This document shows positions 6,817 to 33,645 of a stretch of DNA of 34,568 nucleotides, in pieces; the first letter of the stretch is position 1; the number at the start of each line of letters is the position of its first letter. The translations under genes were made by a program, and so were the position numbers. The notes under the pieces were generated by a model. That model saw nothing but the letters and a program-made list of their open reading frames with translations. It was not told the origin of the DNA and made no database searches. Source of the stretch: Jimgerdemannia flammicorona (taxonomy: Eukaryota); assembly GCA_003990765.1 (NCBI GenBank), contig RBNJ01000272.1:1-34568 (forward strand), given 5' to 3'.

Positions 6817-7395
6817 TGGGTCAGAATGATGTATATTTACTCATAGACTGGTAATAAAGGCAGAGTCCACATGACTATAAAAAAAAAGGCCTATCTAATG
6901 ATACCAAGAACATTGAAATCAGATCATGCGTTGCTGAACCCATCTGAATCGCCGATTTTGGAAATTCTTTGATTTGCCGATTTTGGAAATTTCATCAAAT
7001 AGAACATTTTCCTTAATATCTTGGCAACGTGTAATCCGATTTTAATGTTCTTGATATCATTAGAAAGGCCTTATTAAGGGCTTTCAAATGACACTAAGAT
7101 CATCAAATTTGGATGATTATTCATCGAGTTATGGATGTAAACATTTAATTGTCCAATTTGGAAATCAAAACAATGGTTGATTCGAATCCATCCAGATGGG
7201 ATTCGAATCCATCCGAATTCCATCCAGATTGACTCGTTCGGAGCACTAATCAGAATAGAGAGTTTCCTTTGTAAGAGATAGAGGAAGATGAGTCCTATGT
7301 GAGATAGGATAGGAGGATACTGTATTATTATATTATAGATAAGAAGAATAATAAATGACAAAGTTCAAGAGACTATAAAAAAAAAAAAAAAAAAA

Positions 7396-7429
<34 letters not shown>

Positions 7430-7432
<3 letters not shown>

Positions 7433-10400
7433 TATCTTAACATCTATTTGATAAATTTCATAATTATATTTAGCTTCAATTATAAGAAGTATTCTAAGTA
7501 AAGTAATCTTAAATACTAGGGAAAAAGTCTCATCATAATCTATATGAATATTCTTTTACTACAAATTGGGTCTTATACTACTCTATATCACCATTACTAT
7601 TATACTTAATCTTATATATCTATTAGGATCCTATTGCTTATTGATTTGTCAGAAGAGAGACTAGATTTCAGGTGTTATTCTCAATAAGTAAATTATACTC
7701 CTTTTCTATAGTCTTTTTCTATTTTTTTTTTATCATTTGAGTATATAGCTTTATTATAGTTTACTGATTTACCAGTTATTGCAATATAAGTATACTTATA
7801 AGTATAGTTCATATGATATTTGTTGTGATAGGATTTCTTAGATTGATTCTAATAATCTTCTAAATCTATTTTGATCTTATTACATAGTCTAAACTTGTGC
7901 TTTTTCTTATCTTTCAGAGAGGTATCCTCATCATTATCCTCATTTGTAATTTCCATAATTCTTAGCTCTGATAGTCTTGTTGGTATGGATATGAGTTGTA
8001 CTGATACTAGCAAAGATATCATTTTACTTACCTTTAAAGTTAGTATAGTTGTCACTAGCTATACCATCAGATAGATCAGGATAGAAACTTTTATATAAAT
8101 TTTCTACTTAATTTCCTTGAATTGAATATTATATGAGATAATAATATGATATTTCTATAAGTTCCACAATCTATATATCACTCTGTCATATCTAAGGAAT
8201 GTTTATCTGCTTTAGGCTCAAATTTGTCTCTATTGTTACTCTTATCTAAGATATAAGCCTTACTTCTGAATATTTATAAGTGTGAAATATCTGGATTAGA
8301 TCTACTCTATAATTCTTCAGAGATAAGATTATTATCATTCCTAGATCATTGATTATTATTATCAGATTTGTTAGATCTACTGGAGTCTTTACTTAAAGCT
8401 CAAGAAATATAATGATTTCAGATATATATTACTATATTCACTACTTTGGCCCAGAAGGAGTGTGGTAAGTCAGCCATATTTATCATCATTTGAGCCATCT
8501 CTACTATTATTTGATTAAAGCACTCTACTATACCATTTTGCTCATATATATAGAGGGCTACTATAGAGTATTGAATACTATACTTTTTCAAGAAGTATCT
8601 GAAGACTTTGTCAACATATTTTTTACCATTATCTGAGTATAGGATTTATATTTTATATCTTATTTCATTCTCTATAGTTGCTTTGAATTTTCAAAATTTC
8701 TCAAATGCCTTATTCTTTACTATAAGGAAGTATATATAGACTTTGCAAGTATAATTATCAATGAAAGTAATAAAATACTTTTTTCTGAAGTATATTGCTA
8801 TTTGTATAAGACTGTAAATATCTATATATTATATTGAGAATGCCAGTTACTCACTTCATAATTTCTGAAAAGATTGCTGAGAAGTCTTATTTACCATATA
8901 TTCATTACAAAAGCTGAGGTCTAATAATATATAGTTTGGTAATCTATATATAGATTTACTCCTTATCATCAATTTTAAGCTCATCTTGCTGATATGTTCT
9001 AAAATATTTATACTATATATATTAGAGATCCTCTCCAGTTATAGTAGAATATATAGATGATATACTACTTTATATACTATTGATTATATATAGATTTCTC
9101 TTTTTTGATATATATATTAACTCTTTATTATTCTTTAAATTAATTACTATTATACTATTTGATCATATATTTACTCCTTTATCTCCTCAAGCCATTATTC
9201 AGCTAATTAAAAGAGATTCTTGCTGATATCTGGAGTATATAGTATATCTACAAAGATGCCTGAGGGTTCATCAACTTTTCCATATAGATATATACTGACA
9301 TTTCTCTTATCTTAAGTATAAATGACATTATTGTTATTTAGTTTGATAGGTATAGAATACTCAAACTTCTTGTATATAGAGAACTACTCATAGTAAGCTG
9401 TTATATACTATATATATTATACTGGAATCAATGAGCTAAATTTCTTCACTATATATATAAGTACTCAGCATATAGCTTACATTCATGCTGGTACTGATAT
9501 TAATATTTTCTGTTCTTATAACTCTTTCTGTATACTACTTCTATAAAAAACAGATCTTTATTATTTCTGCTACTTTTATTATTACTATTATTATTGGTAT
9601 CTATGACATTTGTCTACCATTATTTATATTACTTATCTTGGCCACTCTTTTCTTTTTTCTTATGATTACAATCTTACTTATAATGTCCATACTTATTATA
9701 GTAGAAATATTTACTATTAAATTTCTTACATTGCTGGCCTTGGTCTCATTCTTTGCTTAACTTGTCTTTATCTTACCCATATACTCTATAGAAGACTTTT
9801 TCATCACTATTATTATTATTATTACTATCTAGTCTTGATTCCTCATTTAAAAGACTTGTAATGACATACTTGTAGTCTGATAGTTTACTGGATTTTCTTA
9901 TAACAATAATAACTATATTATATACCTCAGAAAGACAATATATAAGGACCAGAACCTTGTCTTTATTCTTAATAAGTTCTGCTAGTATAGAAAGAGAGTT
10001 CACTTGATTTGTCAGATTATTAATATGGTTGGCATAATCTCAGATGCTCTCTTTGAACTTTATTTAGAGATTAAATAGTTATACTTTAGATAGAATCTAT
10101 TTGATATGAATGTCTACTAGTAGTGATTGTATAAGATCTCCCAGGCTTCATTTGCTATTATAGTATTGATGATAAATTTCATTTGTATATTTGAAAGGGT
10201 GAATATAATCTCTCTTAGTGCTCTGTAATTCTTTATAGTTTTGTATACTATTACTTATACCTATAGCTTTTAGTAATCTTCCAAACTGTATTCTTCTAAG
10301 AGATTTTTCATATAGTATACCTATATGGTATAATCTTTACTATCAAAGACAAGAATCATTCTTTTTATTATCATTGATACCACTATAGTTATGACTGTTA

Positions 10401-10742
10401 TATTAGATATACTTATGCTGTCAGTACTTATTCTAAGTCTCATTCCTCTTATACTACTTAGCTGGCTCATATTTGATATGTTGCTAGTATTGACTGATAT
10501 TATAGTATAATATAGCATATGTGTTAGAGATATATTTATTATCTACTTTTACTAGTAGAGCTTATAATATTTTATTGTAGAATACTTAGAAGAGTAGAGA
10601 GAAAAAATTGAAAAAAGATAGTATTATTTATTGATACTAACTTATGTGCTTTTATGTATATTGATGATATTTATATAATAACATAGTCAGGATCAGACTG
10701 AACTACTATATGTCAAGTTATTATAACTAAGATATTTCAATA
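7430..10742 (-). mobile_element. Heavily decayed Ty1/Copia LTR retrotransposon (5' LTR, gag, PR, IN, start of RT), cut in RT by LINE A
   Basis: Minus-strand translations in Copia order: gag-like FDSKDY..MKNLLEEYSL (~10270-10350), PR IDSS (~9421-9432), IN EQNGIVECFNQIIVEMA..LPHSFWAKVVN (~8435-8545), RT ENNT*NLV..IYKIKYNSNGDIE*YK (~7570-7685) and YQIDVKIA (7430-7455). Confidence 0.85.
10573..10742 (-). repeat. Probable 5' LTR of the Copia element
   Basis: Bounded by TATTG...CAATA (decayed TGTTG...CAACA). Adjacent AGAGCTTATAAT resembles the reverse complement of the GGTTATGAGCCC seen next to many fungal Copia 5' LTRs. G2 sequence starts immediately at 10743. Confidence 0.55.
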
Positions 10743-10915
10743 CTTATAATGTGATCATTGTACATTACTCTGAAAAAACCAATGCCAATATAAATGCCCT
10801 CTCACAGATACCTCAAAGGACTCTCAATCAATAAACCAATTATGAATAAAGAGCTCTACTACAGAATTATCACCTATCTGAGACAGTAAAAGATACTCCA
10901 ATATCTGAAAGAATA

Positions 10916-11318
10916 TGTAATGGTTCTAGTTTCTAAATGAGGAAGTGACTAATTCTGGTAGTTCTAAGTAGCTCAAAGAGATACTAAGGATTCAAGTGTT
11001 CTCAAAGGATTTCTGAGAGAAAATATTCTGAGGCTTTATTCATGAGAACAAAGGGGATATTTATACAAGATCTGAAAGAAGGATCAGGAAGGATCTGAGA
11101 AATCAAAGGAAAATGCCAAGAGGAAAGTTCTCAGCAAAGATGACAAATAATGGCAAATAAAGTTCTACAAGTTTCCAGGACAATCAGTGACTAACTAAAT
11201 AAGTACTAGAGGATGCTCGGCACCAAGAAAGGATTTCTAAGCATTCAGAAAGTACCAGAAGATTGTAGAATATTAAAGAAAGACAAAGAAAAGAAATAAA
11301 CTATGCTAAAATACTACA
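10916..11318 (-). repeat. Chromovirus 3' LTR
   Basis: TGTAA...CTACA termini; direct repeat of 16562-16964; adjacent to PPT. Confidence 0.95.
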
Positions 11319-11631
11319 TCTCCTCCTCCTTAAGAATCAATATCCTTATTGAATTCTCAAAGTTACACATAATAAACAATAAGACTAAAAGAAACTTCAA
11401 ATTAAATATATCGACTCATTGGTAAGGATTGGTCATCCTTGTATAAGGTGAGGGCCAAAGTATCATCTTGATCAGATGAGAACTGGTTCGAACCTCGTTG
11501 GTTGCAGGATTTATAGGGTTCTCCTGTATCTCTTGCTTCTAATGCTGTATTCCTTAGAGAGCCCCAATGTGTAATGTGCCTGATCAGTACAGTAGGTCAT
11601 CTACTATCCAAGAGGAGAACCTCACAGGCAG

Positions 11632-14600
11632 TCAATGAGTTTCTTTTTGCTTGAACTCTTGGATGAGGTCTTGGGAGTTCTTGAGATTGGTGGCAGGTTC
11701 CCAGGTAGTATCATATTCAGAGTAACTTATCTACTTGACTAGGTATTCTGTGCAATGGTATCAGACTCGTTTGTCTAAGATTTTCTTGACTTCATACTCA
11801 ATATGGTCTTCAATTATGACTGGTGCTAATAGTGTCAGAATTTGACCAGGGTATGGGGGTGACTGGTTCCAGGCCTTGAGTTGTGACACATAGAATACTG
11901 GATGTATATGCATGGTTGTTGGCAAGTTGAGACAGTAAGACCAGGTAGAGACTTGCTCAGTAATCTTGAAGGGTCCAAGGTACTTGGGCTGGAATTTGGC
12001 TGACTAGCAGTTGACTTGAGATTGAGCCTTAATGTTGTCAGCTTTGAGTAGAACCATATCACCAATATTGTATATGACATCTCACTGCTTCTTATCTGCA
12101 TACTTAGCTTGATGTTGCTGAGCCTTTTGCAAGTTTGTAGTGGTGATCTTGAGAAGAGAATCCATTTTGTTGATAAGGTTCTGGGCTGTGGGGACTTGAG
12201 TGTGACTGGATTGCTGGAATTGGACTAGACTTGCAGGGATCTCAGGGTTTTGACCATAAAGTAGCTGAAATGGGGAAAGACCAGTTGATGATTGGTTGGC
12301 ATTATTGTAGGTGAACTCAGTGTAGATCAGATAGTGGTCTCAATCATCTTGCTTATAAGACACATAGTTTCTGAGTATTTGTTCAAGTATTCTGTTCATT
12401 CACTCTGTCTGTCTATCAGTTTGAGGATGAAAGACAGTGGATATAGCAATTTGAGTTTCAAGGGTCTTGAAGAGTGCTTGCCAGAAGTAACTTGTGAACT
12501 TGGGGTCACAGTCGCTGATAATTACTTGGGGAAGTCCATAATGGTGGAAGACAGTCTTGAAGAAGATTCTTGCAATTTCTGGGGCAGTGGTATTAGTTGT
12601 GGTTGGCTCAGCAATTATAATCTTAGTGAGATGGTCTACAAATACAACAAAAGCATCATAGCCTGTTTTGGTTCATATGTAGGAGTTGCACAATAAAGTC
12701 TATTGTGACTTGTTCGAACTTCTTGGTCAGAATTGACAAGGGTTGTAGAAGACTGACAGGTGCTTGATTGCTTGACTTATTTCTTTGGCAAAGATCGCAG
12801 CTTTGGACATACTCTTTGATTTCCTTGAGCATGTTTGGCCAATAGTAGTCTCGTTGGATATTCTTGATGGTCTTCTCAGTTCCAAGGTGGCCAGCTAGTG
12901 GAGAGTCATGATGTTCACAAAGAATCTTGTACCATAGTTCAGGGTTGGTAGGAATATATACTTTGTCTTGATAGTACACAAGATTGTCCTTCATGATGTA
13001 CTTTTCCTTGAATTCCTTGGTATTCCTTTGTAGAACCAGAGAGTCTTGTTTGTATGCCTTCTTGATCTAGTTGAGGAATTCAGGTGCCACAGTGACTTGT
13101 AAGATCACAGCAAGGTCAGATCTCCTTGAAAGTGTATCTGGTACAACTAGAGTTTTGCCAGGCTTGTAGATGATGTTTGGGGTAAAGGTCTGAAGTAGTT
13201 GGCTCCACTTGGCTTGTTGGCGAGAGAGGGTTGGTTGAGTGTTGATGTACTGAAGAGATCTATGATCAGTGATCATATCAAACTCAACTCCTTCTAGATA
13301 GTATTGCTAGATCTTGAGGGCATGTATGATTGCTAGGAGTTCCTTTTCATGAGTAGCTAGCTTTTGTTCTGCTGGGGACAATTTTCTTGACTCAAAGGCA
13401 ATAGGTCAGTGTCCTTGACCATCATCTTGAGAAATGACTGCACCAATGACAAAGTTAGATACATCTGTAATAACTGTGAACTTCAAGTTTGGGTCCATGT
13501 TTCTAAGGACAGGTGCATGGGTCAGATAGTTCTTGAGTTCTTGAAAGGCTTGTTGACAGAAGTCATCCCAGATGTAGGGGACATAGAGGTCAGAGTTGGG
13601 TTCCTTTCACAGGAGATTTGTCAAAGATTCTGCAATGCCAGAGAAGTTCTTGACAAATCAACAGTAGTATTCAGCCAGACCAAGGAAGGACCTAAGTTCA
13701 GTGAGGTTTGCTGGTACAGACCACTGTTCAATAGCTTGTATTTTTCTTGGGTCTACTTGAATTCCTTTGGCTGATACAATGTGTCCAAGGTATTTGACTT
13801 GATCCTTGAAAAATTCACATTTCTTGAGCTTTGCATAGAGCTTGTTCTCGTGGAGGATCTTGAGGACTTGTTTGATGTGCTTGAGGTGTTCTTCTTCAGT
13901 GCTATTGAAGATCAGGATGTCATCAATATATACAAGTACAAAGATATAGAGCTGATCCTTGAAGACAGTTTGCATGAGGTCTTGAAAGGTTGCTGGCACA
14001 TTGGTGAGAACAAAGGCCATAACTAGAAATTTGTAGAGTCTAAAGAGTGTCATGAAGGCAGTCTTGGGTATGTCTTCTGGCTTGATTCGAATTTGGTGAT
14101 ACTCAGAGGTGAGATCAATCTTGGTGAAGTACTTGGCATTCTTGAGAGTATTAAAGATTTGATCTATGAGTGGTAGCAGATAATGGTTCTTGACTGTGAT
14201 CTTGTTGAGTGTACAGTAGTCTATGCACATTCACAGAGTATCATCCTTTTTCTTGACAAATAGGACTGGGGAGCCAAAGGGTGACTTGCTTGGTTGAATG
14301 GCTCCTTGTTCAATGAGTTCATTGAGTTCCTTCTTGACTGCTTCAATTTCAAGTAGAGACATGCGGTACATTTTCTTCTTAGGTATAGCTGTATCAGGTA
14401 CCAACTCGATTTCATGGTCATGATCTCTTGAAGGTGGTAGACCAGGTAGTTTGTCTGGGAAGACATTCTTGTACTTGTTCAGCAGTAACTTGATGCTTTC
14501 ATCAATTGATAGCTTCTTGTCTTCTTTCTTTGATTGGATCAGTACCATAAAGGTACAGGTAGCTTTCTTGAGGGCCTTCTTGAACTGGATTACTGAGAGG

Positions 14601-16483
14601 GTAGCAATTGGGGTTCTCATCTGAGTCTTGTCTGGCTTGATGGTAATGTTGGCTCCATCTTGAATCAAGGTGACTTCATTCTTAGTCCAATCAATCTGAG
14701 GGTTGTGCTGTATAAGCCAGGGTTTGCCTAGGATCAGGTCATGGTCTCCTAGTGGTGCTACCTCGAAATCTAAACATTCCCAATACTTCTGGATCTTGAG
14801 GGGAAGTTTAGCAGCAATTGAGTCAATTGATAAGGTAGTGCTATCTGCAGTGACAACTCTACCATTCTTGCTAGCTGGTTTGGTGAGAATCTTGAGCTTG
14901 TCGATGAGGTTCTTGTTGATGAAGTTCCCAACAGCTCCACTGTCTATGAGAATATCTAGCTCTTGTCCCTTGACTAGACCTTTGAAGATGAGCATTGAGT
15001 TGGTTCAGTTCTTAGCTATACTTGCAACTTTATCAGTACCGCCAAAGCCTTTCTGATCTTGCTTGGTGGCAGATAGCTTGATGACTTCTTTAACAACTGG
15101 TAGGATAGCTTACTTTAGAATGAGTTGTACAATTCTGTCACCTTCATTGATGGTATATGGTTGGTTCTTGTGGTTGACTAGCAGGACTTGCATTTCATCT
15201 CAGAAGTCAGAGTCAATGACTTCAGCACTAACATCTAATGAGTGCTTGAAGCTGAGGCCAGATCTTGGTACAATTCTTGCATAATGTTCCTTGGGGATTT
15301 CGACTAAAAGGTCAGTTGGAATGAGCCTTCTCTCATGTGCTGGAATAGTGACTTGTTGTACTGCTTGAAGGTCCAAACCAATGGCTCCTTCTGACTGTGC
15401 TTGAGGGATCTGGGCCTTGGAGTTAACTTACATGAAATTGAGTATAACTTCTTGTTTGACTGGTTGATCTTGAGTGTCTTTGGACAGAACTAGAATCCTC
15501 TTTGGTTCCATGGTTTTCTTGGGACATTTGGTTGCAATGTGACCAGGCTGATAGCAAAAGAAGCAGGCTCTAGCCTTCTTGAGGTGCTCCTTTTTCTTGG
15601 GTGTAAGCTTGCCTTTCTTGCTCTTGTTGATGGTATCTAGGTCCATGGGGGCAGGTCCAACAGTTCTGACTTTGGGTTCCTCCCTTCTGTGGTTGTTGTT
15701 GTTGTTGTTGAAAGGTGGTCTCTTCTGTTCAAAGCAGTGACCATAAGTGATGACATCAAATCTATCAGCAATTTTTATTGCTATATCTAGGTCCTTGGGT
15801 TCTTCTAGTTCAACACAAACTCGGGTTTGACCTTTCAGGCCTTGGATGTACTTGTTGACCTTCTCGTCTTCAGTGATATATGGTAATTCTAGCAGAATTG
15901 ACAGGAATTGTGCATTGTATGCTTGCACAGACTTAAGTTGTTTGACATTTGCCAGACGGTCTCATGCAGCCTTGGTGCTGTTGACTGGTTTGAATTGGTC
16001 TTAAATAGCATCAGAGAATTTACCCCAGGTCTTGATTTGGCCAGAAAATCTGGTATTCTGGACATGATTTCACCACCAGATTGCAGTATTCCCTCGGAGG
16101 AGTATAGCAGCAAATTGGACTAGTGTTGTTTCTTCCAAATTTATCAGTTCTCTATATTGCTTCAATTGGAAAAGCCAGGCATCAGTAGACAGTCCTCCTC
16201 TTTGACCATTAAAGGTGTCAGACTTCTGAGGCTTGATAGTGACTACTGTCAGATATATTGATATTGGTAGGGGTGTGAAGGTATGAGTGGGGGCCTTGCT
16301 TTCCTTTCTTTCTATGCATTCTTAAAGTTGAGCAATCTGAGCTAATGTGGTCTGCAAAAGACTCTCAATGGCCCCATTTAACTGAGTAGGGTTTTGCTAT
16401 TCCTCTTCTTCTTGCTGATTGTACTGATTGTATGAGGTATTATCTGAACTATAGGTATGTACTATATGAAGGGTTCCACCCAT
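11632..16483 (-). pseudogene. Chromovirus gag-pol polyprotein with many transition-derived stops
   Basis: ATG at 16483 is in frame with ORFs 15928, 14995, 14230, 13276 and 12994. Motifs: CFFCYQPGHIATKC, ILIDSGA, YIDD, HHDSPLAGH..CDLC. Chromodomain EYEVKKILDKRV..EYLVK*..YDTTWEPATNLKNSQDLIQEF at ~11650-11800 is in a shifted frame. Confidence 0.92.
15035..15440 (-). other. dUTPase domain within chromovirus polyprotein, between zinc knuckle and protease
   Basis: In-frame read-through gives KAQIPQAQSEGAIGLDL..IPTDLLVEIPKEHYARIVPRSGLS..EVIDSDF*DEMQVLLVNH..INEGDRIVQLIL..QKGFGGT, i.e. all five trimeric dUTPase motifs. Confidence 0.9.
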
Positions 16484-16561
16484 TGTCCTTTATAGTATTA
16501 TAACTGATATCTTGAGAAGTGTCTTGATAAGGCTAGGTGTAACTTCACCACTGCTACTAAG

Positions 16562-16964
16562 TGTAATATTTCTAGTTTCTAAATAAGAAAGTGACTAATT
16601 CTGGTAGTCCTAAGTAGCTTAAAGAGATACTAAGGATTCAAGTGTTCTCGAAGGATTTCTGAGAGAAAATATTCTGAGGCTTTATTCATGAGAACAAAGG
16701 GGATATTTATACAAGATCTGAAAGAAGGATCTGGAAAGATCTGAGAAATCAAAGGAAAATGCCAAGAGGAAAGTTCTCAGCAAAGATGACAAATGATGAC
16801 AAATAAAGTTCTACAAGTTTCCAGGATAATCAGTGACTAACTAAATAAGTACTAGAGGATGCTCAGCACTAAGAAAGGTTTTCTAAGCATTCAGAAAGTA
16901 TCAGAAGATTGTAGAATATTGAAGAAAGACAAAGAAAAGAAATAAACTATGCTAAAATATTATA
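16562..16964 (-). repeat. Chromovirus 5' LTR
   Basis: Direct repeat of 10916-11318; adjacent to PBS and gag start. Confidence 0.95.
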
Positions 16965-17539
16965 GAATAGATATAAATAATTATCAATAGAATATGGAAA
17001 TAATTTAAAACTAATAGAGAGATACTAAAGAAAGAAAACTACTAGTCATATCTAAATACAAAAAGGAGTAAGTAATGAAATCAGTATATAAACTTAGCTA
17101 TCTAAAAGGAATAAATATCTATGATAAAGCAAGAAGAAAATATAGTAGCCAGAAATAGAGAAAGATATCAAATAATTTGTCAAGACCTATAATAAATACT
17201 AAAAATAGAAATAAGATTAATGAAATCAGACTTCAGAATTGATATACATAGAACTAATACTCTTTGCATATATTATAATAGATATAATTGGCTTTCTATT
17301 CTTAACTTTAATTAATAACTATGTAATACATTATTATCATTATAGACCTTTTTACAAAATAGATAGAGATAGGATCTCTCAAAGAAGTCAATATATAGTC
17401 AATTGTAATATATTTTTTTATTTTAAATAAAGCTTAGAATATTTTTTTCTAAAAATCTTTAAATTTATAGTATCTCTTTAAGTTACTTAGACTTACTAAA
17501 ATCTTTTAAATTTAATTACTTTCCTTAAAAAAATGAAAA

Positions 17540-18146: not shown

Positions 18147-18439
18147 ATTATATACAGTATGAGATTTGCACAACGGCAAAAGAAAGCCACCACTGGCTTT
18201 CATTTCTCCATATGCCCACACAACACGGACGGCCGGCGGGCTGAGGCAGTGGGCGACCAATTAAAAGATTGACGAGGTAGGGAAAGAGGATGGGACATGG
18301 TTGATGTTTAAGAGAAAATCCGCTCATGGAATGATCGTCGCCAATGTCAGCACGACACGTGAACAATTTACACGTGTCTCCCTTCACGTAATTATTATAT
18401 ATACATAGTATCTTTCTCACTTTCTCACGTTCAAATCCT

Positions 18440-19840
18440 ATGACAATGGAGAAGAAAATGCCCAAGATAGGCACAGATCTACAAACTATACTTGAACCAA
18501 ATCCTTCGTGCCCGCGACTTCCCCCCGAGATCCTGTACCACATCTTCAGCTACTTTGACCTATCCTCTCCAGAAAACACCGACGGCGTCTTCGACCTGAT
18601 GGCGGCCTCCATGGTCTGTCGCGAATGGTGTGAAGTCGCTCGTCCCATGATAACAGATGAACACATAGAAGAATCTCAGTTTATGGACGAGGAAATTGAT
18701 GATAAATTCCCTGAAAACCTTCAGCGGTTTGCCTCGTTGCTTTCCACATCGAAAATTCTCGGCATGAACTACTGCACCAAGGTCAACATCGTCATAATTG
18801 CGATTAACGAATTCCTGGGGAGTCCTCAATGCGTTGACGACGCCAGAACTCTAACCAATCTGCCCACCAAGCCCGAGGACCACGATGCCCTATTTACCAT
18901 CCTCGCCCTCACTACGCCAACGCAACTCATCGTCCAAATCGACAAACCCGCAGGATATGCGCCTGACCGCCTCCACGCACGCGAACAGTTCCTCTCTAGG
19001 CTGGCCCCACACTTCGGTGTCCACGCGCTGACGCTCCATCTTCCCCGCGATGAGCAGCCCCCGGACCCACAATTTGCCAGCCTCGTTCACGTAGCGCGCG
19101 CCTCCTTGAGTAAGGTTACCCTCCTGGGCAGGCCTGATCCCATGACGCGGGACGCACTTTCCCTGTGCGTCGATGTCCGGACCGCGAGCATCTTCAACGG
19201 TCACGCCCCGACCACCGACTCCATCCTGAAAGGCTGGCGCGCCCTCCGCAGCATCAATCTGCTCTGGCCGGCCGGACGGGTCGTAGAAACCGTCTCGGGG
19301 ATGGGTGACACGCTAGGCGACGCGCTGGAGGACATCTACGTCATAGGGAGCCCGATCATGGAGGAGGCGGAAGCAGCCGAAGTCGCGGGGGTGCTGGAGG
19401 CCGTCGTGTCGCGCTGCGCTCGACTCGAGAGGCTGTACGCCGGCGCGTCCGAGTTTCCCACGATGTCGTTCAACTATATCAATGACGGGGTCTTGCGGGC
19501 CATGGCACGGAATTGTAAAGAAATTAGACTATTGGATCTCGCGCCCGGCCTCGGGCTCACGGCCGCGGGCATCTGGGATGATGAAACGGCGCCGCAATGG
19601 CCGAAGTTGAGGTGCTTGAACGTGTGGAACGAGCAGGTCGTGCCCGAATTTGTGGAGCGGGTGGTTTTAGGGTGCGGTGCGCTGGAAGAGGTGTATATGG
19701 TGACGGAGGTGAGCGAAGATCCGGGTGTGATGAGGGCGATCGAGCAGCGCGGGTTTGAATGGGTCTGTGATCGTCTCTGGCGTAGGCCAGCCAGCGATTC
19801 GAGTGTGGTGGAAAGGGAGGAGGCTCGAATAGCGACATAG
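18440..19840 (+). CDS. F-box domain protein with LRR/RNI-like C-terminus (466 aa, single exon; start could be 18440, 18446 or 18458)
   Basis: F-box signature RLPPEILYHIFSYF...LMAASMVCREWCEVA. LRR-like segments (CARLERLY, NCKEIRLLDL, WPKLRCLNV, CGALEEVY). Intact ORF with CpGs retained. Confidence 0.88.
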   Translation: MTMEKKMPKIGTDLQTILEPNPSCPRLPPEILYHIFSYFDLSSPENTDGVFDLMAASMVCREWCEVARPMITDEHIEESQFMDEEIDDKFPENLQRFASLLSTSKILGMNYCTKVNIVIIAINEFLGSPQCVDDARTLTNLPTKPEDHDALFTILALTTPTQLIVQIDKPAGYAPDRLHAREQFLSRLAPHFGVHALTLHLPRDEQPPDPQFASLVHVARASLSKVTLLGRPDPMTRDALSLCVDVRTASIFNGHAPTTDSILKGWRALRSINLLWPAGRVVETVSGMGDTLGDALEDIYVIGSPIMEEAEAAEVAGVLEAVVSRCARLERLYAGASEFPTMSFNYINDGVLRAMARNCKEIRLLDLAPGLGLTAAGIWDDETAPQWPKLRCLNVWNEQVVPEFVERVVLGCGALEEVYMVTEVSEDPGVMRAIEQRGFEWVCDRLWRRPASDSSVVEREEARIAT

Positions 19841-21171: not shown

Positions 21172-21640
21172 CGCTTTCGTTGCCAAAGTTATTTACAATT
21201 TGCCGAGAGTGGCGCGCTGCCACAGTGTGGAGTTCTCAGTTATCGCTTAATGCAATACTGGTACATATAATTCAATGTGGTATAATTAAACTGCCTTACC
21301 CTGCACTGCGGATCTGTGCCATGCGCCCCGTGCACCAAGCCTGCTATTTTTGGCCGCGCTCCGCCCGATCCTTGCTGGGTCCCTGGACCCCTCGGGGCGC
21401 ACCGCGTGCATTCCACTCCCCGAACGCTCTTGTTTTGATGGCTTCCCGTACAAGGTAACCAAACATTAGGTAATTTTATATTTAGAAGTTTCGCCAAAAA
21501 TCTTATAAGCCCTGAACAATTCTCTCGGAAATTACTTGTTACTCTGGTAAATAGTTTTAAGAAATAATTTTTTAAAAATTATAATTACAATTTCAGACAT
21601 CCTTTATATCTAGCACAAGAATAATAAATACCATTACTAT

Positions 21641-22099
21641 TGTGACGGTATAGCCAGATTTGGAAGAAGGAAATAGGGAACAGACATTTGATCGCACCCA
21701 GTCCCAAAGTAGTATAGTCACATAGTTAGCAGTCCTTGATTTCACCACTTGCTAAATATTTTGCAAAGTGCAAGATGGAGCTTCTCGATATAGTATAGCA
21801 TTTTGCAACTGGCAAAATATTTTGCAAAGTGTTAAATGACTCATAACCTAGTTATATAACTCATCTCATAGCTAGCAAACTTGTTAAATAACCCAGTATC
21901 TTCAAGTGAATAAACCTCAGATCGAAATAGTTCAAAGCAAAGAGATAGCAAAGGAACTAGTAAGCCTGTGGGCAGATATACTTTGAACTCACCCACTCTC
22001 CTCTGCAACTTCAAGAGACTCTGCAAGAGTCAGAATAGTCAAGTTTTCAAGATACAGAAATCTGATGTACTTTCAAGAGTAAGCATCCACTATGTTACA
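21641..22099 (+). repeat. G2 5' LTR
   Basis: TGTGA...TTACA termini; direct repeat of 27881-28340. Confidence 0.95.
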
Positions 22100-22199
22100 A
22101 CTTGGTGCACATTGGCTGGTGATTCAAGATGAATCCCTCACTTTCAAGCTGAACAACAAACAACTGCCACTACCCGAACAACCATACAAACTGAGCCCC

Positions 22200-25100
22200 A
22201 ATACCCAGACAAGATGGATATGAGACTGTCAGTATTTTATGGATATATCTTAGATAAATCAATCATCACCTTCATTGATGATTTTGAGCAGTATGCCACT
22301 GTAAGGGCCCTGACAGCAGCACAGCAAGTAGCCCTCATGCCCTTCAGCCTATGAGGTCCTGCCAGAGCAGCATTTACAGCCACAACCCATGCAGGAAATG
22401 ATGCCAATGCTATACTGACAGTACAGAAGACCTGGCTCCAAAATACATATTATACGGACAAGATCAAGCAAGCTCTGAAGGATCAGCTCAATACAATATA
22501 CCAAGGAATGAGTGAGGATCCAAACACATTCTATACCAGAATTCGATATTAGATAATCCTTGCAGATTATGCTGCTGCTATCTGAGATCAAGTAGTCAAA
22601 GCAATCTTCATGAAAGGAGTCTATCCAGAAATAGCCATGGCTATCTGCTCATCACTAGTGATTCTGGATCTGCTACAGAAGGTCACCTATGCTCAGCGAT
22701 ACTGGATAGCCAGACATCCACAAGACCATACAATAGAAAGAGTTACAGGAGTCAAAATCAAAGCACCCAAGGCAACCAGTGTGATCTCTACCACAATGAT
22801 CAATCAAAACACACCTCAGCCAAAAGCTACAGAGCAGCAAAAGAACAGTGACCCTATGGAGGAACTCGCCAAAAGGTTTGCCAAAATGACTGCCCACCTG
22901 GGAGATATGGTAAAGGAAATTTGAGAAAGAGACCGCCACCCTGTCCAGAAGTTTGCTGCCATCTCAGATAAGAAGAAAGGCACCTGCTATACTTGCAGAG
23001 AAGAAGGCCACTACTCCTATGAATATATGAGTGAAACCAAGCACAAGGCTCAACCAAACAATGCTATATGAAACAAGGAGCAGGCCAATACAATTACCTT
23101 CGAGGAAATTGGAGATTCTGATGAAGAAGAATAGGAGGCCTATCCTGCTCAGACTACCAAGAAGGATGTTTGCAAGGAACCCTACAAGAGACCACCAGGA
23201 AGACCCAAGAAGAACCTAGTAGAAAAGCAGATGGAAATGGCTACCGAAAGCCAAGCTGAAGAGATGGACCAAGATATGGAGCTGGAGTAAGCAGTTCAAG
23301 ATATCATCCAAGGAATCACTCCAGCCAGTAAAGGAGAAAAAGAAAAGAAGCTTTGCAAGACCAAGACCTTTAAGTATGATATCTTCAAGAACCTCAGTCA
23401 ACAAAAGGTCAATACAACCTTTGGTCAGCTCGCAGAAATCCCAACATTCAGACAGCAAATAAGGTTTGAACTTGCTGAAACAACTAAGAAACAAGGATGG
23501 AAGATAACTGAGGCCAATAATGTTCAAGAGGACTCAGGAGAAGAAAGTGAGGACAATCGCAAAACCTCTGCTTATGCAACATACCAAATTAAAGATAGAA
23601 TCTTTGAAGCCATTATTGATATGGGAGCAGGAGGATGTCTCCTCAGCAAGAAGACAGCAGACCGCCTAGATTGAGATGTGGAAGAAGCAACTAAGCTGGG
23701 TTTGTCACAGCTGATGGCACAAGAGCCACACCTCTGGGAAAGATCCAAGATGTTCCCATCAAGATTGGAGGAGTAACCATCCCAGTAGATGTAATTGTAA
23801 CCAATGCCACTAACTATGACATCCTCATCAGCAATCAATGGCTTCATAAAGCCAAGGCAGTAATTGATCTCAATGCCCAGAAGATATAGAATCACCTATC
23901 AGGGACAGAAGATATGAATTCCCATCAATGTCAACAAAGGAGTCCTATCTGATATGGAGGAAGAAGAGAGTGAGCAAGAGGAAGCTTATATGGTGACTAC
24001 TCCAAAGAAGAAGAAAGTTGGATGGATAAGTAAAGAAGAATAGTGCAAGAAGATCACAGAAGGTTATGCTCTACAAGGAGTCTGTCCTCATGGGATCAAG
24101 ATGTACTATATGGAGCATGTCAATGATTGCTACCAGTGTACCATCAGAATCAAGAAGATCTACCAGGAAAGAAGGCAGAAAGCTCTTGAAAAACAGATCA
24201 GGGAAGAAGAGAAGGAGGAAGATGACAAACCACCAGCCCTCCTGGAAGACAGTAATGATGAAGAAGAAATCAAGGTCAAGATTCAAAAGATCCACCCTGA
24301 TGCAGTCTTGCCAGAATACAAGTCAGAAAATACAGCTAGAATGGACATCGCTACAGTAGAAGAGACTGTACTGGAACCCCAGACAACTACCCTACTTGCA
24401 ACTGGACTGGAGATGACCATCCCAAAGGATCATATCAGGATTCTCAAGACAAGAAGCAGCCTGGCTAAAAGCGAAATCACAATCGAAGGAGGAGTCATCG
24501 ATTCAGACTATACTGGAGAAATTCTACTCATTGCTAGGAATCACAATCCTACAATCCCATTTCTAGTCAAGAAGAAGGACTGGTTGGCACAAATGTTGAT
24601 CTTTCTGATCCTACAACTAAAGATCATAGAAGTTAAGAAGCTGGAGGAAATGCAAAGAGAAAAGAAAGGATTTGGATCCACAGAAAGAGGAGTATTCGCT
24701 AGCACCAAGATCACTGAACTCGAGCATAAGAAGGAGGAAAACACAAGCAAGCACAGCTATACCATCAGAAACAAATTTCCACTCAAGAAAGAACTCAAGA
24801 AAATACTCTACAAATTTGAAGATGTCCTTATCATAGATTTCAAGGATATCAAAGGAAAGACCCCACACTACTATCATAAAGTAGATACTGGAAACACCGA
24901 ACCAATTTATCAGAAGGCAAGACCTGTCCTGCCAGCCTACCGAGAATGACTCAGAGAAGAAATCAAGCAGATGGAAGAAGCCGGCATTATTAAGGAAGCC
25001 AGCAGCCCCTGGGCCTCACCTATTGTACTAGCCCCGAAAAAGGGCAGCAAGTCTGAAGAATTTGCCCCAAGACTCTGTGTTGACTATAGAAAGCTCAACA

Positions 25101-26191
25101 TGGTTACCAAAAAGGATCACCAACTACTGCCCCTCATCAATGATATCCTCATAATACTGGGAGATGAAGCATAGTACTATAGTACTTTGGACTTATACTC
25201 AGGATTCCACCAAATCGGACTCACAGACATGACAAGTGAAAAGTCAGCTTTCATCACCCCAGATGGAACCTATGTCTACCTATAAATACCATTTGGAATA
25301 TGCAATGCACCAGCAAGTTTCCAGCAAATGATGAATAAAATCTTCTACTATGACATGGGAAGATGGATGATGGTCTATATTGATGATGTAATCATCTATA
25401 GCCAGACACCAGAAGAACACCTGTAGCATATCTGGCAGATAATGGAAAGACTGAGAAAGCATGGCCTATACATTAAGCCCAAAAAATGCAAATTTGCAGA
25501 AATCAAGATCTCTTATCTCAGCCACATCATCAACCAAGATGGAACACACATGGACCCCCTCAAGATACAAGCAGTGGCAATATACTCAAGACCCACTACT
25601 GTTACAGAAGCCCAAGCCTTCATGGGACTTGCCTCCTATTATTGCAGATTTATTAGAGGATTTTCTAATATTGCAGGACCAATCTACAAACTTAACAAGA
25701 AGGATACTAAGTTCCAGTAGACTGGCAGACAACAAAAAGCATTTGATGAACTCAAGGTCAGACTGACCCAGGCACCCATCCTCAGAAGACCTGACTGGAC
25801 TCAAGAATTCATTCTACAGACTGATACAAGTACACAAGGACTAGGAGCAGTCCTAGTTCAAAAGAAAGATAAAGTGGAGTATGTCATTGCATACCTCAGC
25901 CGCGGAACCCAAGGAGCTGAAAAAGAATATGAATCCTACAAGTTGGAATGCCTCACAGTCATCTGGGTCATAGAAAAGTTCCACTACTACTTGGCTGGAA
26001 GACACTTCACCATCCAAATGGACCACTCAGCTCTCACCTGGCTACTGACAACCAGACAACCCAAAGGAATCTATGCCAGATGGATAATGAAGTTGCAAAC
26101 TTATGATGTAACCATTGTACACTGCTCTGGAAGAACCAATGTCAATGCAGATGCCCTCTCACAGACACCCCGAACTACCTCCAACCAATAA
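22200..26191 (+). pseudogene. G2 gag-pol (gag, CCHC, PR, dUTPase, RT, RNase H), ending at TAA 26189-26191; start approximate
   Basis: Zinc knuckle CYTCREEGHYSYEY (22985); PR AIIDMGAG (23618); RT SPWASPIVL, RLCVDYRKLN, DLYSGFHQI, YIDD; RH TDTS..GLGAVL..VIAYLSR..LECL..DHSAL..NVNADALS. Mostly one frame, with local indels near 23700 and 23890. Confidence 0.92.
24269..24685 (+). other. dUTPase domain in G2 pol, between protease and RT
   Basis: KIHPDAVLPEYKSENTARMDI, TGLEMTIP, KTRSSLA, GGVIDSDYTGEI, KDWLAQMLI, REKKGFGST. Confidence 0.92.
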
Positions 26192-26198
26192 ATTAATT

Positions 26199-27392
26199 AT
26201 GAATAAGGAGCTCTACTATGGAATTATCACATACCTGGGACAGTGAAAGATGCCCCAACATCTGGAAGAATGGATACAAATAATTATCAACAGAATATGG
26301 AAACAATTTGAAACTGATGGAGAAACACTGAAGAAAGAAAAACTACTAGTCATACCAGAACACAAGAAGGAGCAAGTGATGAAATCAGTATATGAACTTG
26401 GCCATCTAGGAGGAATAAATACATATGACAAGGCAAGAAGAACAATATGGTGATCAGGGATGGAGGAAGATATCAGACAATTTGTCAAGACCTGTGACAA
26501 ATGCCAGAAATAGAAATAAGACCAACGAAATCGAGCCCCAGAATCAGCACACATAGAACCAGTACTATTCGCCCACATTGTAATAAATGTAATCAGCCCT
26601 CTACCCTTGACTTTGACTGGCAACCGATACATCATCATCATCGTAGACCTTTTTACAAAATGGATAGAAGCAGGACCCCTTATGGAAGCCAATGTACAGT
26701 CAATCACTGATTTCTTCTACAAAGAAATCATCTGCCAATTCAAGACCCCAATGCAAGTAACAACAGATAGAGGAACAGAATTTGTGAACCAGTTCTTCAA
26801 AGTTCTCTATAAGAAGTACAAGATCCAGTATATTTGGACCACAGCATATCACTCTCAAGGAAACAGACAAGTAGAAAGGACCAACAAGACCCTCAAGAAT
26901 ATTATTGCTAAGATCTGTGATAACTATGAAAACTGGGATCACTATCTGCCAATAGCATTATCCGCTCTTCGGGATATCTGATCACAAAGTACCCACTTTA
27001 CCCCTCAAGAAATGCTGTTCAGAGAAGAATGTTCTCAGAGAACCCTATCATCCAATGGAGATGCTATATGGAAACATGTGGATATGGAAATATGGAGACT
27101 ATACCAAATCAGGAAGAAGGCTGAGGATTACATAACTAAGGCGCAGACACTACAATAGAGAAATGCAGAAAAGACCCACAAACTCTTGGAGATTATCAAG
27201 ATAGAAGACAAAGTCCTAGTGTATCGGAATATGGTAGAAGCTTCATGGTCACGAAAACTAGAGCCCAAGTGGGAAGGACCTTACCTTGTACAAGATATAA
27301 AAGGGACTACCTTTTGGCTACGAAAACTCTCAGGTACAATAATCCCCACTACTATTCACCGAAACTGACTCAAGAAATATCATAGCTAGTAA
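26199..27392 (+). pseudogene. G2 integrase encoded as its own ORF (+1 frame relative to RT-RH)
   Basis: ATG 7 nt after the RH stop. LGHLGG..CDKC zinc finger; VDLFTKW, TTDRGTEF, VERTN core; WEGPY motif; no chromodomain. Confidence 0.88.
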
Positions 27393-27405
27393 CAAAAGTA
27401 CTGCG

Positions 27406-27843
27406 ATGGCACTCAAGATTACTAGTGCTGCCCAAAGGGCCATCAAGAGACAATGGTACACCACTGAGCCTCCGACCATAGAGGAGTCTTATGACAGTAT
27501 CTAAAGTATCATGTAGACTCATCTCTCTTGGATCTCACACTTCAAGGCCTATCAGCATCGAAACGAATTTCAAGAGTACTTCAAACTTAGCCAAGTACTC
27601 AACCAAGACCCAGAAATGACTAAAGAAAATTGGATCATAGAATGCCAGCTCTCTTATTCCCAGATCACCATTGCTAAGAGAATCTATAAGCTATTCCGAG
27701 AGGATGAACCAGCACTAGCCCACCTGCAAGGAGTGACTCCCTCAGACTTCAACTGAGTCAGATGATACCATTGGGAAACAGTAATGCAACAAATCGCACA
27801 ATACAAGACCATACAGACCATTGAAGTCTGGGAGTTTGAATAG
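27406..27843 (+). pseudogene. G2 ORF3, unknown protein (116-145 aa) between integrase and PPT
   Basis: MALKITSAAQRAIKRQWYTTEPPTIEESYDSI(Q)SIM(Q)THLS...EVWEFE*. Same 438-nt length in the second copy (30420-29983), where most stops are sense codons. Confidence 0.7.
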
Positions 27844-27880: not shown

Positions 27881-28340
27881 TGTGATAGTATAGCTAGATT
27901 TGGAAGAAGGAAATAGGGAATAGACACTTGATTGCACCCAGTCCCAAAGTAGTATAGCCACATAGTTAGCAGTCCTCGATTTCGCCACTTGCTAAATATT
28001 TTGCAAAGTGCGAGATTGAGCTTCTCGATATAGTATAGCATTTTGCAACTGGCAAAATATTTCGCAAAGTATTAAATGACTCATAACCTAGCCATGTAAC
28101 TCATCTCATAGCTAGCAAACTTGTATAAATAACCCAGTATCTTCGAGTGAATAAATCTTAGATTGAAATAGTTCAAAGCAAAAAGATAGCAAAGAAACTA
28201 GTAAGCCTGTAGGCAGATACACTTTGAACTCACCCACCCTCCTCTGCAACTTCAAGAGACTCTGTGAGAGTCAGAACAGTCAAGTTTACAAGATATAGAA
28301 ATCTGACATACTTTCAAGAGTAAGCATCTGCTATGTTATA
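27881..28340 (+). repeat. G2 3' LTR
   Basis: Direct repeat of 21641-22099, preceded by PPT. Confidence 0.95.
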
Positions 28341-28459
28341 CTATTTATCTTTGATTATAATAAATATTTTTGTAAGTCTCCTTTAGCAGAATGAAGTAGA
28401 AATAAAAAAAGCAGCCAGCCTTTTTATAAAGTTCCATTTGAATAGTCACCTGAAATTTA

Positions 28460-29192: not shown

Positions 29193-29453
29193 TAGTGCTC
29201 TCAACAAATTGAATCAAAGATTCAATTTAATTCAAAATTTAATTTAAATTCTATTTTTTGAAATATAATAACTTGACAAAAATATGTCCAAATTTAATAA
29301 GCTAAAGATTATTAAATTTGGATGTATTTTTATTGAGTTATTATATTTCTAAAAATAGAGTTCAAATCAGACTTTCAATTTGATTTAAATTTGATTTTAT
29401 TCAGACTTAATTCAAATTGAAAAATCTCTAATTTGATTTGTTTGGAAGTACTA
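29193..29453. mobile_element. hAT-family MITE (~260 bp, palindromic)
   Basis: Termini TAGTGCTCTCAACAAAT / ATTTGTTTGGAAGTACTA; internal inverted symmetry; flanks ATATGTAA and ATATAT (right TSD cut by the LTR at 29460). Confidence 0.7.
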
Positions 29454-29459
29454 ATATAT

Positions 29460-32400
29460 TGTAACATAGTGGATGCTTACTCTTGAAAGTACATTGGATT
29501 TCTGTATCTTAAAAACTTAACTATTCTGACTCTCGCAGAGTCTCTTGAAGTTGCAGGGGGAGTGGGTGAGTTCGAAGTATATCTGCCTGTAGGCTTACTA
29601 GTTTCTTTGCTATCTCTTTGCTTTGAACAATTTTGATCTGAGGTTTATTCACTCGAAGATACTGAGTTATTTATACAAGTTTTGCTAGCTATGAGATGGT
29701 TACTGGGTTATATGGCTAAGTTATGAGTCATTTAACACTTTGTGAAATATTTTGCCAGTTGCGAAATATTTCACCAGTTGTGAAATACTATATTATATCA
29801 AGAAGCTTGATCTCACACTTTGTGAAATATTTAGCAAGTGGCAAAATCAAGGACTGCTTACTATATGGTTATACTACTTTAAGACTGGGTGCGATCAAGT
29901 ATCTATTCCCTATTTCCTTCTTCTGAATCTGGCTATACTGTCACAACTTCCTCCTGAATAGATGACCTTATCCTTGAAGTATCTATTCAAACTCCCAGGC
30001 TTCAATGGTCTGTATGGTCTTATATTGTGCAATTTGTTGCATTACTATTTCCCAATGGTGTCGCCTGACTCAGTTGAAGTCTGAGGGAGTCACTTCTTGC
30101 AGGTGGACTAGTACTGGTTCATTCTCTCAGAATAGCTTGTGGATTCTCTTAGCAATGATGATCTGGGAATAGGAGAGCTGGCATTCTGCAATCCAATTTT
30201 CTTTGGTCATTTCTGGGTCTTAGTTGAGTACTTGGCTAAGTTTGAAGTACTCTTGAAATTTGTTTTAATGCTGATAGGCCTTGAAGTGTAAGATCTGAGA
30301 GAGATGAGTCTGCATAATGCTTTGGATACTATCATAAGACTCCTCTATGGTCAGAGGCTCAGTGGTGCACCATTATCTCTCAATGGCCCTTTGGGCAGTG
30401 CTAGTGATCTTGAGTGTCATCACAGTACTTTTGTTACTGGCCATGATATTTCTTGAGTTGGTTTCGGTGAATGGTGGTGGAGATTATTGTACCTGAGGGT
30501 TTTCATAGCCAAAAGGTAGTTCCTTTTATATCTTGCACCAGGTAAGGTCCTTCCCACTTGGGCTCCAGTTTTCATGACCATGAAGCTTCTACCATATTCT
30601 GATATACTAGGACTTTGTCTCCTATCTTGATAATCTCTAAGGATTTGTGGGTCTTTTCCACATTCCTCCATTGTAGTGTCTGCACCTTGGTTATGTAATC
30701 CTCAGTCTTCTTTCTGATTTGGTGTAATCTTCATATTTCTATATCCACATGTTTCCATACAGTATCTCTATTAGATGATAAGATTCCTTGAGAACATTCT
30801 TCTCTGAACAGCATTTCTCAAGGGGTAAAGTGGGTACTTTGTGATCGGATATCCTGGAGAGTGGATAATGCTATTGGCAGATAGTGATCCCAGTTTTCAT
30901 AGTTATTATAGATCTTAGTGATAATATTCTTGAGGGTCTTATTGGTCCTTTCTGCTTATCTATTTCCTTATAGGTGATAGGCTGTGGTCTGAATGTGCTA
31001 GATCTTGTACTTCTTGTAGAGAACCTCAAAGAGCTGGTTCACAAATTCTGTTCCTCTATCTGTAGTTACTTGTGTTGGGGTCTTGAACTGGCAGATGATT
31101 TCCTTATAGAAGAAATCAGCGATTGACTGTGCATTGGCTTCCTTGAGGGGTTCTGCTTCTATCCACTTCGTAAAAAGGTCTACGATGATAATGATATATC
31201 GGTTACCAGTCAGGGTCAAGGGTAGAGGGCTGATTACATCCATTGCTATGTGGGCAAATGGTACTGGTTCTATGTGTGCTGATCCTGGGGCCTGGTTTTG
31301 TTGGTCTTGTTTCTGTTTCTGGCATTTGTCACAGGTCTTGATGAATTGTCTGATATCTTCCTCTATCCCTGGCCACCATATTGTTCTTCTTGCCTTATCA
31401 TATGTATTTGTTCCTCCTAGATGGCCAAGTTTGTATACTGATTTCATTGCTTGCTCCTTCTTGTGTTCTGGTATAACTAGTAGTTTTCCTTTCTTCAGTG
31501 TTTCTCCATCAGTTTCGAATTGTTTCCATGTTTTGTTGATAATCATTTGTGTCCATTCTTCCAGATATTGGGGCATCTTTTGCTGTCCCAGTTATGTGAT
31601 AATTCCATAGTAGAGCTCCTTATTCATGATTAATTTGTAGTTTGGAATATCTGTGAGAGGGTATCTACATTGGCATTGGTTCTTCCAGGGTAGTGTACAA
31701 TGGTTACATCATAAGCTTGCAACTTCATTATCCATCTGGTATAGATTCCTTTGGGTTGTCTGGTTGTCAGTAGCTAGGTGAGAGCTGAGTGGTTTGTTTG
31801 GATGGTGAAGTGTCTTCCAGCCAAGTAGTAGTGGAACTTTTCTATGACCCAGATATCTGCAAGGCATTCCAACTTGTAGGATTCATATTCTTTTTCAGCT
31901 CCTCAGATTCCATGGCTGAGGTATGCGATGATGTATGTACTCTACTTTATCTTTCTTTTGAACTAGGACTGCTCCTAGTCCTTGTATACTTGCATCAGTC
32001 TGTAGGATGAATTCTTGAGTCCAGTCAGGTCTTCTGAGGATGGGTGCCTGGGTCAGTCTGACCTTGAGTTCATCAAATGCTTTTTGTTGTCTGCTAGTCC
32101 ACTGGAACTTGGTATTCTTCTTATTAAGTTCATAGATTGGTTCTGCAATATTAGAAAATCCTCTAATAAATCTGTGATAATAGGAGGCAAGTCCCATGAA
32201 GGCTTGGGCTTCTGTAATAGTGGTGGGTCTTGGGTATGCTGCAACTGCTTGTATCTTGAGGGGGTCTGTGTGTGTTCCATCTCGGTTGATGATATGGCTG
32301 AGATAGAAGATCTTAATTTCTGTGAATTTGCATTTTTTGGGCTTGATGTATAGGCCATGCTTTCTCAGTCTTTCCATTATCTGCCAGATGTACTGCAGGT

Positions 32401-33209
32401 GTTCTTCTGGTATCTGGCTGTAGATGATTATATCATCAACATAGACCATCATCCATCTTCCCATGTCATAGCAGAAGATTTTGTTCATCATTTACTGGAA
32501 ACTTGCTAGTGCATTGCACATTTCAAATGGCATTCATAGGTAAATGTAGGTTCCATCCAGAGTGATGAAAGCTGACTTTTCACTTGCCATGTCTGTGAGT
32601 CCGATTTGGTGGAATTCTGAGTATAAGTCCAAAGTGCTGTAGTACTGTACTTTATCTCCCAGTGTTATGAGGATGTCATTGATGAGGGGCAGTGGTTGGC
32701 AATTCTTTTTGGTAACCATTTTGAGCTTTCTGTAGTCAAGACAGAGTCTTGGGGCAAATTCTCCAGGCTTGCTGCCCTTTTTCGGGGCTAGTACAACAGA
32801 TGAGGACCAGGGGCTACTGGCTTCTTTAATGATACCAGCTTCTTCCATCTGCTTGATTTCTTCTCTGAGCCATTCTTGGTAGGCTGGCAGGACAGGTCTT
32901 GCCTTCTGATAAATTGGTTCAGTGTTTCCAGTATCTACTTCATGATAATAGTGTGGGGTCTTTCCTTTGATATCCTTGAAATCTGTGGCAAGGACATCTT
33001 CAAATTTGTGGAGTATTTTCTTGAGTTCTTTCTTGAGTGGAAATTTGTTTCTGATAGTGTAGCTGTGCTTGCTTGTGTTTTCCTCCTTCTTATGCTCAAG
33101 TTCAGTGATCTTGATACTGGCAAATACTCCTCTTCCTATGGATCCAAATCCTTTCTTTCCTCTTTTCATTTCCTCCAGCTTCTTAACTTCTATGATCTTT
33201 GGTTGTAGG
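29460..33209 (-). mobile_element. Second G2 copy (3' LTR 29460-29945, ORF3, IN, RH, RT, end of dUTPase), interrupted by a hAT transposon
   Basis: Reverse complement of ~24610-28340. ORFs 32534..33229 (KRGKKGFGS, RLCLDYRKL), 31895..32491 (YVDD) and 30998..31576 (IN). Confidence 0.95.
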
Positions 33210-33317
33210 TAGTGCTCCGAACGAGTCAATTCGAATCAAATCCGGATTCAATTCGTCACATGATGGTTTGATTCGAATCTCAAATCCGAAGCCATCCAGA
33301 TCAACTCAGATTTAATC

Positions 33318-33645
33318 CGAATCACCCCATCTGAATCGCCCCATCCGAATCACCCATCCGAACCACCCCAATCCGAATCACTCAATCCGAATCACTCAAT
33401 CTGAATTGCTCCATCTGAATTGCCCCATCTGAATCATCCATCTGAATCACCCATCCGAACCACTCCAATCTGAACCACTCAATCTGAATCACTCAATCCG
33501 AATCACTCAATCTGAATCACTCAATCCGAATCACTCAATTCGAATCCTCCAATTTGAATCCTCCAATTTGAATCCTCCAATTCGAATCCTTCAATCCGAA
33601 TCCTCATCCGAATCCTTCAACTGAATCCTCCAATCCAAATCCTCC
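33318..33645 (+). repeat. Subterminal tandem array of ~12-14-bp units (TCCGAATCACYCMA / TCGAATCCTCCAA)
   Basis: About 25 imperfect copies directly inside the TIR; typical position of hAT transposase-binding repeats. Confidence 0.85.

Follow-up and report, generated by a model that had tools for sequence, protein, structure and literature searches.

The integrase of retroelements normally reaches the particle within the Gag-Pol polyprotein. In a survey of LTR elements of fungi it is described as the last part of pol (PMC3248453), and for PosPlaTy3-5, Gypsy elements of the fungus Postia placenta with a dUTPase between protease and RT, one or two ORFs (gag, pol) are described (PMC2864245). Other splits are on record, i.e., between gag and pol in Tyl3 and into three ORFs in a non-LTR element, none of those described there separating RNase H from integrase (PMC5014426, PMC5911963). 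Searches of the main texts of open-access papers gave no description of a Gypsy integrase encoded in an ORF of its own. The DNA transposon Ginger1 is described as having a Gypsy-like integrase that stands alone and carries H2C2 and GPY motifs, together with TG...CA ends and a 4-bp duplication (PMC6839031). Foamy virus Pol is made from a spliced RNA, and its uncleaved precursor alone is packaged, via RNA or protein contacts (PMC3705302). For Tf1, reverse transcription is described as independent of integrase, and supply of the integrase in trans is not shown in that account (PMC5741268).

A second ORF can be translated by termination-reinitiation. The described pattern is a stop and a start within 20 nt, sometimes as AUGA, after a long ORF, with an efficiency of 3-20%, and the fungal viruses CHV1 (hypovirus) and HvV190S (victorivirus) are among its users (PMC10275272). 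Fungal viruses also do so without the UGGGA TURBS motif (PMC5972666). In the viral cases the process sets the ratio between two proteins, and among retroelements these reviews give reinitiation for the non-LTR elements SART1 and LINE-1 only (PMC10275272, PMC5972666).

The window, i.e., the whole stretch of 34,568 nt analysed here (contig RBNJ01000272.1 of Jimgerdemannia flammicorona), contains a 6.7-kb LTR retrotransposon in which RNase H and integrase are split. Its 5' LTR (21641..22100, plus strand) has TG...CA ends and is directly preceded by the 4-bp target duplication CTAT (21637-21640). A purine tract stands before the 3' LTR (27881..28340, plus strand) and CTAT after it (28341-28344). 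The LTRs are identical in 424 of 461 columns and differ by 33 transitions and 3 transversions; the 3' LTR of this decayed copy ends in TA instead of CA. One frame (22214..26206, plus strand) encodes gag, protease, dUTPase, RT and RNase H and terminates at the stop within ATGAATAA. It is followed by a stand-alone integrase ORF (26199..27392, plus strand) with an H2C2 zinc finger, a DDE core and a GPY motif. Both are decayed, with 22 stops in 1331 codons from Met 22214 and one short local frame excursion in the former, and 7 stops in 396 codons in the latter. Pfam gave dUTPase and RT_RNaseH matches on the element, and the relative P0201 is a single open ORF of 1499 aa with zf-CCHC, protease, dUTPase, RT and RNase H, without integrase.

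The direct LTRs with TG...CA ends, the target site duplication, the domain order PR-RT-RH-IN and the H2C2/DDE/GPY integrase are those of Ty3/Gypsy elements (Metaviridae). In difference to these, the integrase is an ATG-started ORF of its own, and gag and pol share one frame; the place of the integrase within a Pol polyprotein is a usual Ty3/Gypsy feature but not the phylogenetic criterion. The dUTPase between protease and RT is shared with PosPlaTy3-5, whereas a separate integrase is not part of their published description (PMC2864245). At the integrase C-terminus Pfam detected no chromodomain (P0004), and the integrase stops shortly past the GPY region, so the element does not class with the chromoviruses. 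In its stand-alone integrase with these motifs, its ends and its 4-bp duplication the element resembles Ginger1 (PMC6839031); Ginger1 is, however, defined by terminal inverted repeats and the absence of RT, whereas here the LTRs are direct and RT-RH immediately precedes the integrase.

Two further copies lie in the window, and all three are decayed. The old copy, in which 10742..10914 (plus strand) spans the last part of RNase H and the first part of the integrase, carries ATGAATAA at 10842-10849, and its integrase resumes at 16964-17403 past a nested element. The third copy (29459..33209, minus strand) is 5' truncated and carries ATGAATAA at 31627-31620 behind an 11-nt deletion; the ATG of its third ORF (ORF3) is at 30444. 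The nested element (10916-16861) is a different Ty3/Gypsy element inserted in the integrase of the old copy, with LTRs at 10916-11215 and 16562-16861 (96% identical). On the minus strand it encodes capsid, protease, RT and integrase, the last of these in one frame with RT-RH. Elsewhere the window holds a G-rich stretch (871-7204) with inverted repeats at 871-1019 and 7056-7204, and decayed ORFs (3241-6048) that by eye look like a non-LTR endonuclease and RT, two pieces of which gave no Pfam match. A single open frame with an F-box domain (18392-19840, plus strand) is the only apparent host gene. A tandem array of a 14-nt repeat (33200-33607) adjoins the third copy at its truncated 5' end, and a short inverted repeat (29221-29388) lies beyond its LTR.

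The sequence-only reading had described the junction as a conserved stop, a 7-nt spacer and an ATG. Its letters and the frame change hold: in the window element TAA stands at 26189-26191, the ATG at 26199 and the integrase in the +1 frame; the old copy reads CAA TAA ACCAATT ATG at 10829-10844 and the third copy TAATCATG at 31632-31625 (minus strand). However, the conservation of this layout does not hold, as the codon at 26189 is sense in 85 and a stop in 38 of 123 distinct copies of this family (family A), taken from 130 loci after edge loci and duplicates were dropped; the source genome, of 231 Mb, contains thousands of candidate matches. What is conserved is the overlapping stop/start ATGAATAA (26199..26206, plus strand) and not the upstream TAA with its spacer. 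In this 8-nt overlap, a candidate stop/restart site, the RNase H frame (xAT GAA TAA) is laid over the integrase ATG AAT AAG in +1, an arrangement kept in all three window copies. The overlapping stop is present in 123/123 distinct family A copies (122 TAA, 1 TAG), and the integrase ATG is intact in 113 of the 123.

The upstream TAA was rejected as a conserved stop and is a C>T decay product. Over the 123 copies the codon at 26189 reads CAA 66 times, TAA 33, ACT 13, TGA 5, CGA 4 and AAA 2. In 25 copies near locus L082, CGA (4), TGA (5), CAA (12) and TAA (4) stand side by side, the pattern expected of CpG decay. When 30 copies were chosen with a distant protein instead of a junction query, CAA was found in 25, TAA in 2, AAA in 2 and a contig edge in 1. 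TAA occurs in 10/30 best matches of the window's own junction and in 18/25 matches of the heavily decayed old copy. Elsewhere in the integrase CAA>TAA changes amount to 2-4%, below the 10/30 seen among the best matches of the window query. This excess speaks against decay alone: the first TAA may in part have been passed on within a sub-branch, or the query may have enriched for it. From the frame change it had been argued that the junction could not be a simple C-to-T stop; the frame change stands, but the TAA at 26189 is itself such a change. The TAA of the third copy, taken as the homologous stop, is a different, non-homologous triplet that came into the RNase H frame because of the 11-nt deletion.

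The overlap also occurs in 3/3 metagenome relatives (L031, L032 and L033, the confirmed cases among 87 pattern matches), though the upstream linker diverges. Their integrases are 78%, 72% and 48% identical to the query, respectively, and in L031 and L033 1001 open pol codons end at the overlap stop. Two sister families in the same genome, B and C, with RT-RH 41-46% identical to family A, have the integrase in -1, with ATGA as the overlap (31/31 copies in B, 16/16 in C). The integrase begins 22 (B) or 3 (C) codons past the RNase H end motif. Among the families having the split, RT-RH identity is only 41-53%. A fused Gypsy family is present in the same genome as well (L093, L102, L177). At one family C locus (L165) a second integrase region, of family A type, lies 3' of the copy (6548-7600 in minus-strand coordinates).

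The integrase is under purifying selection, with a dN/dS between subfamilies of 0.06-0.11. Invariant residues are H65, H69, C99 and C102, D130, D190 and E226, and G360 and P361. The best PDB match is Ty3-G Gag-Pol (7q5b). In 28 aligned integrases the initial Met is the first and an invariant column, and 53/58 proteins that match from the profile start begin at that Met, evidence that is weakened for database proteins because gene callers partly set the start. A protein search confined to 217-692 aa gave 44 integrases, most full-coverage ones being 408-480 aa long and starting with M[ND] at the same column. Database integrases of this kind carry bacterial transposase labels. Viral contigs (8 loci) and prokaryote genomes (18 loci) gave distant fused or bacterial integrases only.

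Young copies or close relatives with RNase H and integrase fused, which would make the split copies a non-autonomous subfamily, were looked for, and no fused member was found. In a profile search without length limit 96 of the 150 listed proteins are fused, the best of them at rank 26 of the 150 by single-domain score (341 vs 614 bits). Among 120 listed RT-RH matches 18 are at least 50% identical and none of these has an integrase family, in a search with an upper length of 1752 aa that full-length fusions would escape. Cluster members and representatives with the RNase H end lack an integrase in 59/59 cases, and cluster members up to 2048 aa stop at the same residue across assemblies.

For RT-RH, 127 rows, already without 10 multi-copy or short matches, were reduced by 32 near-duplicates and by 5 rows that were redundant or long; 5 others were added, giving a tree of 95 rows. 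A 24-row clade (SH-aLRT 99) comprises every one of the 9 split elements verified at the DNA level and, in addition, 15 pols that lack an integrase; together with its sister it has 58 rows (SH-aLRT 89) and no fused member. Five integrase-less rows sit among the fused clades and are probably broken copies. The integrase tree (83 rows, fused rows picked by hand) has a 32-row core (support 97) without fused member, and the branching of this core, B and C versus the rest, matches that of the RT-RH tree; both trees are quick ones without bootstrap. Two fused integrases, P0266 and L177 (G000:C3096), nest in a wider 54-row integrase clade (support 100) with a placement support of 82-85, possibly by re-fusion or as retained ancestry. 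Some of the lone database integrases could be DNA transposases or Ginger-like, because these proteins were considered without DNA context. In this lineage the integrase is a separate ORF and not a decay product. The lineage is broad and probably fungal: Rhizophagus holds integrase-less gag-pol relatives, and those members of the sister clade that bear a name come from Rhizophagus. Integrase-less gag-pols of the sister clade (P0221, P0237, P0250 and others) have a tail of 200-360 aa past RNase H, for which Pfam gave no family (P0221 examined); in the Rhizophagus members this tail is shorter. In P0236, an integrase-less pol of the same clade, PF00293 (NUDIX) replaces the dUTPase.

A second junction follows the integrase. 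ORF3 (27382..27843, plus strand; about 153 aa) overlaps the integrase end with its start in +1, and the start codon is ATA in the window copy. In the 54 matched family copies (60 examined), the ATG is present in 50 and the stop in all 54. ORF3, at 4184-4645 in L031, is under purifying selection. It has no Pfam family, uninformative Atlas matches and 10 close homologues only, and its model is helical with low confidence (pLDDT 49). L033 and family C have unrelated ORF3s with this same start position, and in the L032 subfamily an unrelated ORF3 begins 4 nt past the integrase stop. In L031 and L033 the overlap is 41-44 nt, where viral cases tolerate 30 nt. ORF3 may be coupled to the integrase much as the integrase would be to RNase H, which is less certain because the overlap reaches 44 nt.

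The integrase is probably made by coupled termination-reinitiation at the RNase H stop. By its sequence layout the element encodes a Gag-PR-dUTPase-RT-RH polyprotein and, further along one LTR-to-LTR RNA, a second cistron for the integrase. After terminating at the end of RNase H, ribosomes would begin anew at the overlapping AUG. If only a minority did so, less integrase than Gag would be made, the job of the gag/pol frameshift in two-ORF elements; with gag and pol in one frame, it is the restart that would yield the excess of Gag over integrase. An integrase without Gag tether would enter the particle via RNA or RT binding, by analogy to foamy virus Pol, which is likewise made without Gag and packaged through RNA or protein contacts (PMC3705302); there the whole Pol is free, here the integrase alone. 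As in caliciviruses, influenza B, CHV1 and HvV190S, where the out-of-frame stop and start are a few bases apart, including AUGA (PMC10275272, PMC5972666), both lie within about 20 nt of each other, with overlaps of 8 and 4 nt. Unlike in the viral cases, neither UGGGA nor a shared structure was found upstream, and the mechanism, proposed here from sequence, would serve a retrotransposon enzyme. Counting against it, the TURBS motif TGGGA is absent from the 150 nt upstream of the junction in 7/7 elements, and the z values for folding of the upstream 100 nt range from -3.2 to +2.1 and disagree within family A. The proposed coupling would resemble that of the downstream ORF in SART1 and LINE-1 (PMC5972666); these are non-LTR elements, unlike the present ones, with the junction between ORF1 and ORF2 and no integrase to package.

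Further evidence comes from the pol ends: Gln is the last residue in 7/16 core-clade pols without integrase, against a background of 4% (p about 1e-6), which counts for reinitiation because CAA-TGA would give a terminal Gln. The sister-clade pols show no such bias (3/34). The closeness in ATGA may partly be chance, because an MN start in -1 makes ATGA automatically and off-frame stops are frequent; 25/58 integrases start with MD or ME, which cannot form ATGA (proteins only). Pairing of 18S rRNA with the junction gave nothing convincing when judged by eye. The longest identical run between L031 and L033 (18 nt) lies at the RNase H end, a weak hint, as equally distant pairs show runs of 16-17 nt elsewhere.

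Of the three routes offered by the sequence-only reading, reinitiation fits best and +1 recoding is disfavoured because the sister families use the -1 frame, whereas a subgenomic RNA stays a rival. Such an RNA, started at an internal promoter or spliced from the 5' LTR transcript, would be the template for both integrase and ORF3, the overlap reflecting compactness only. This would explain the frame freedom and the conserved Met equally well and agrees with the absent upstream reinitiation signal, the looser overlap at ORF3 and the spliced RNA for foamy virus Pol (PMC3705302). We consider it unlikely, since no splice acceptor is shared (YAG positions vary, and the 150 nt upstream in L033 contain none) and since it would require neither conservation of the overlapping stop across three families nor a bias of pol ends towards Gln. 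With a programmed frameshift, +1 in A and -1 in B and C, some of the RNase H would be joined to integrase, and packaging would be as usual. The integrase frame is open for 29-48 codons upstream of the ATG in families A and B, and four representatives of family A have CCC CGA codons 37-32 nt upstream; however, many family A copies read CCT CGA, in family C the frame is open for only 7 codons, and 7/7 elements lack an XXXYYYZ slippery site. The offset is not constant, sister families would need two different mechanisms, and conservation of the Met would be needless. The two frame offsets, the one stop/start geometry and the conserved Met speak against frameshifting, which appears improbable, and for termination-reinitiation.

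An IRES or shunt, by which an A/C-rich, weakly folded stretch before the ATG would recruit ribosomes regardless of pol termination, is a rather improbable explanation: in family A most of the 40 nt ahead of the ATG is unpaired and -3 is a purine, but in families B and C that stretch is paired and has C at -3, and the stop overlap would be left without reason. It is most improbable that the break is a lesion of a dead, non-autonomous subfamily, spread with help of a fused helper element. The three window copies are all decayed, a fused Gypsy family exists in the genome and two fused integrases fall in the wider clade. However, pol and integrase are both open in young relatives, purifying selection acts on the integrase, the split is common to families with such divergent RT-RH, and the RT and integrase trees branch alike.

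The split integrase is a real and, within the open-access literature searched, new form of Ty3/Gypsy organisation, with termination-reinitiation as a likely mechanism. More tentatively, and at somewhat less than even odds in our view, the clade would be old, widespread and fungal, polycistronic by successive stop/restart (Gag-to-RNase H, integrase, third protein), with free integrase packaged without a Gag tether; the split would have arisen once, with occasional re-fusion, and would show how a free Gypsy integrase such as that of Ginger can arise. For annotation the finding is a warning, as such elements look frameshifted and dead. The junctions are natural short test sequences for eukaryotic reinitiation after an ORF of 1,300-1,500 codons without a known signal. 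A large lineage in which the integrase has stayed a gene of its own must bring it into the particle by a different route and must control the Gag:integrase ratio in a different way.
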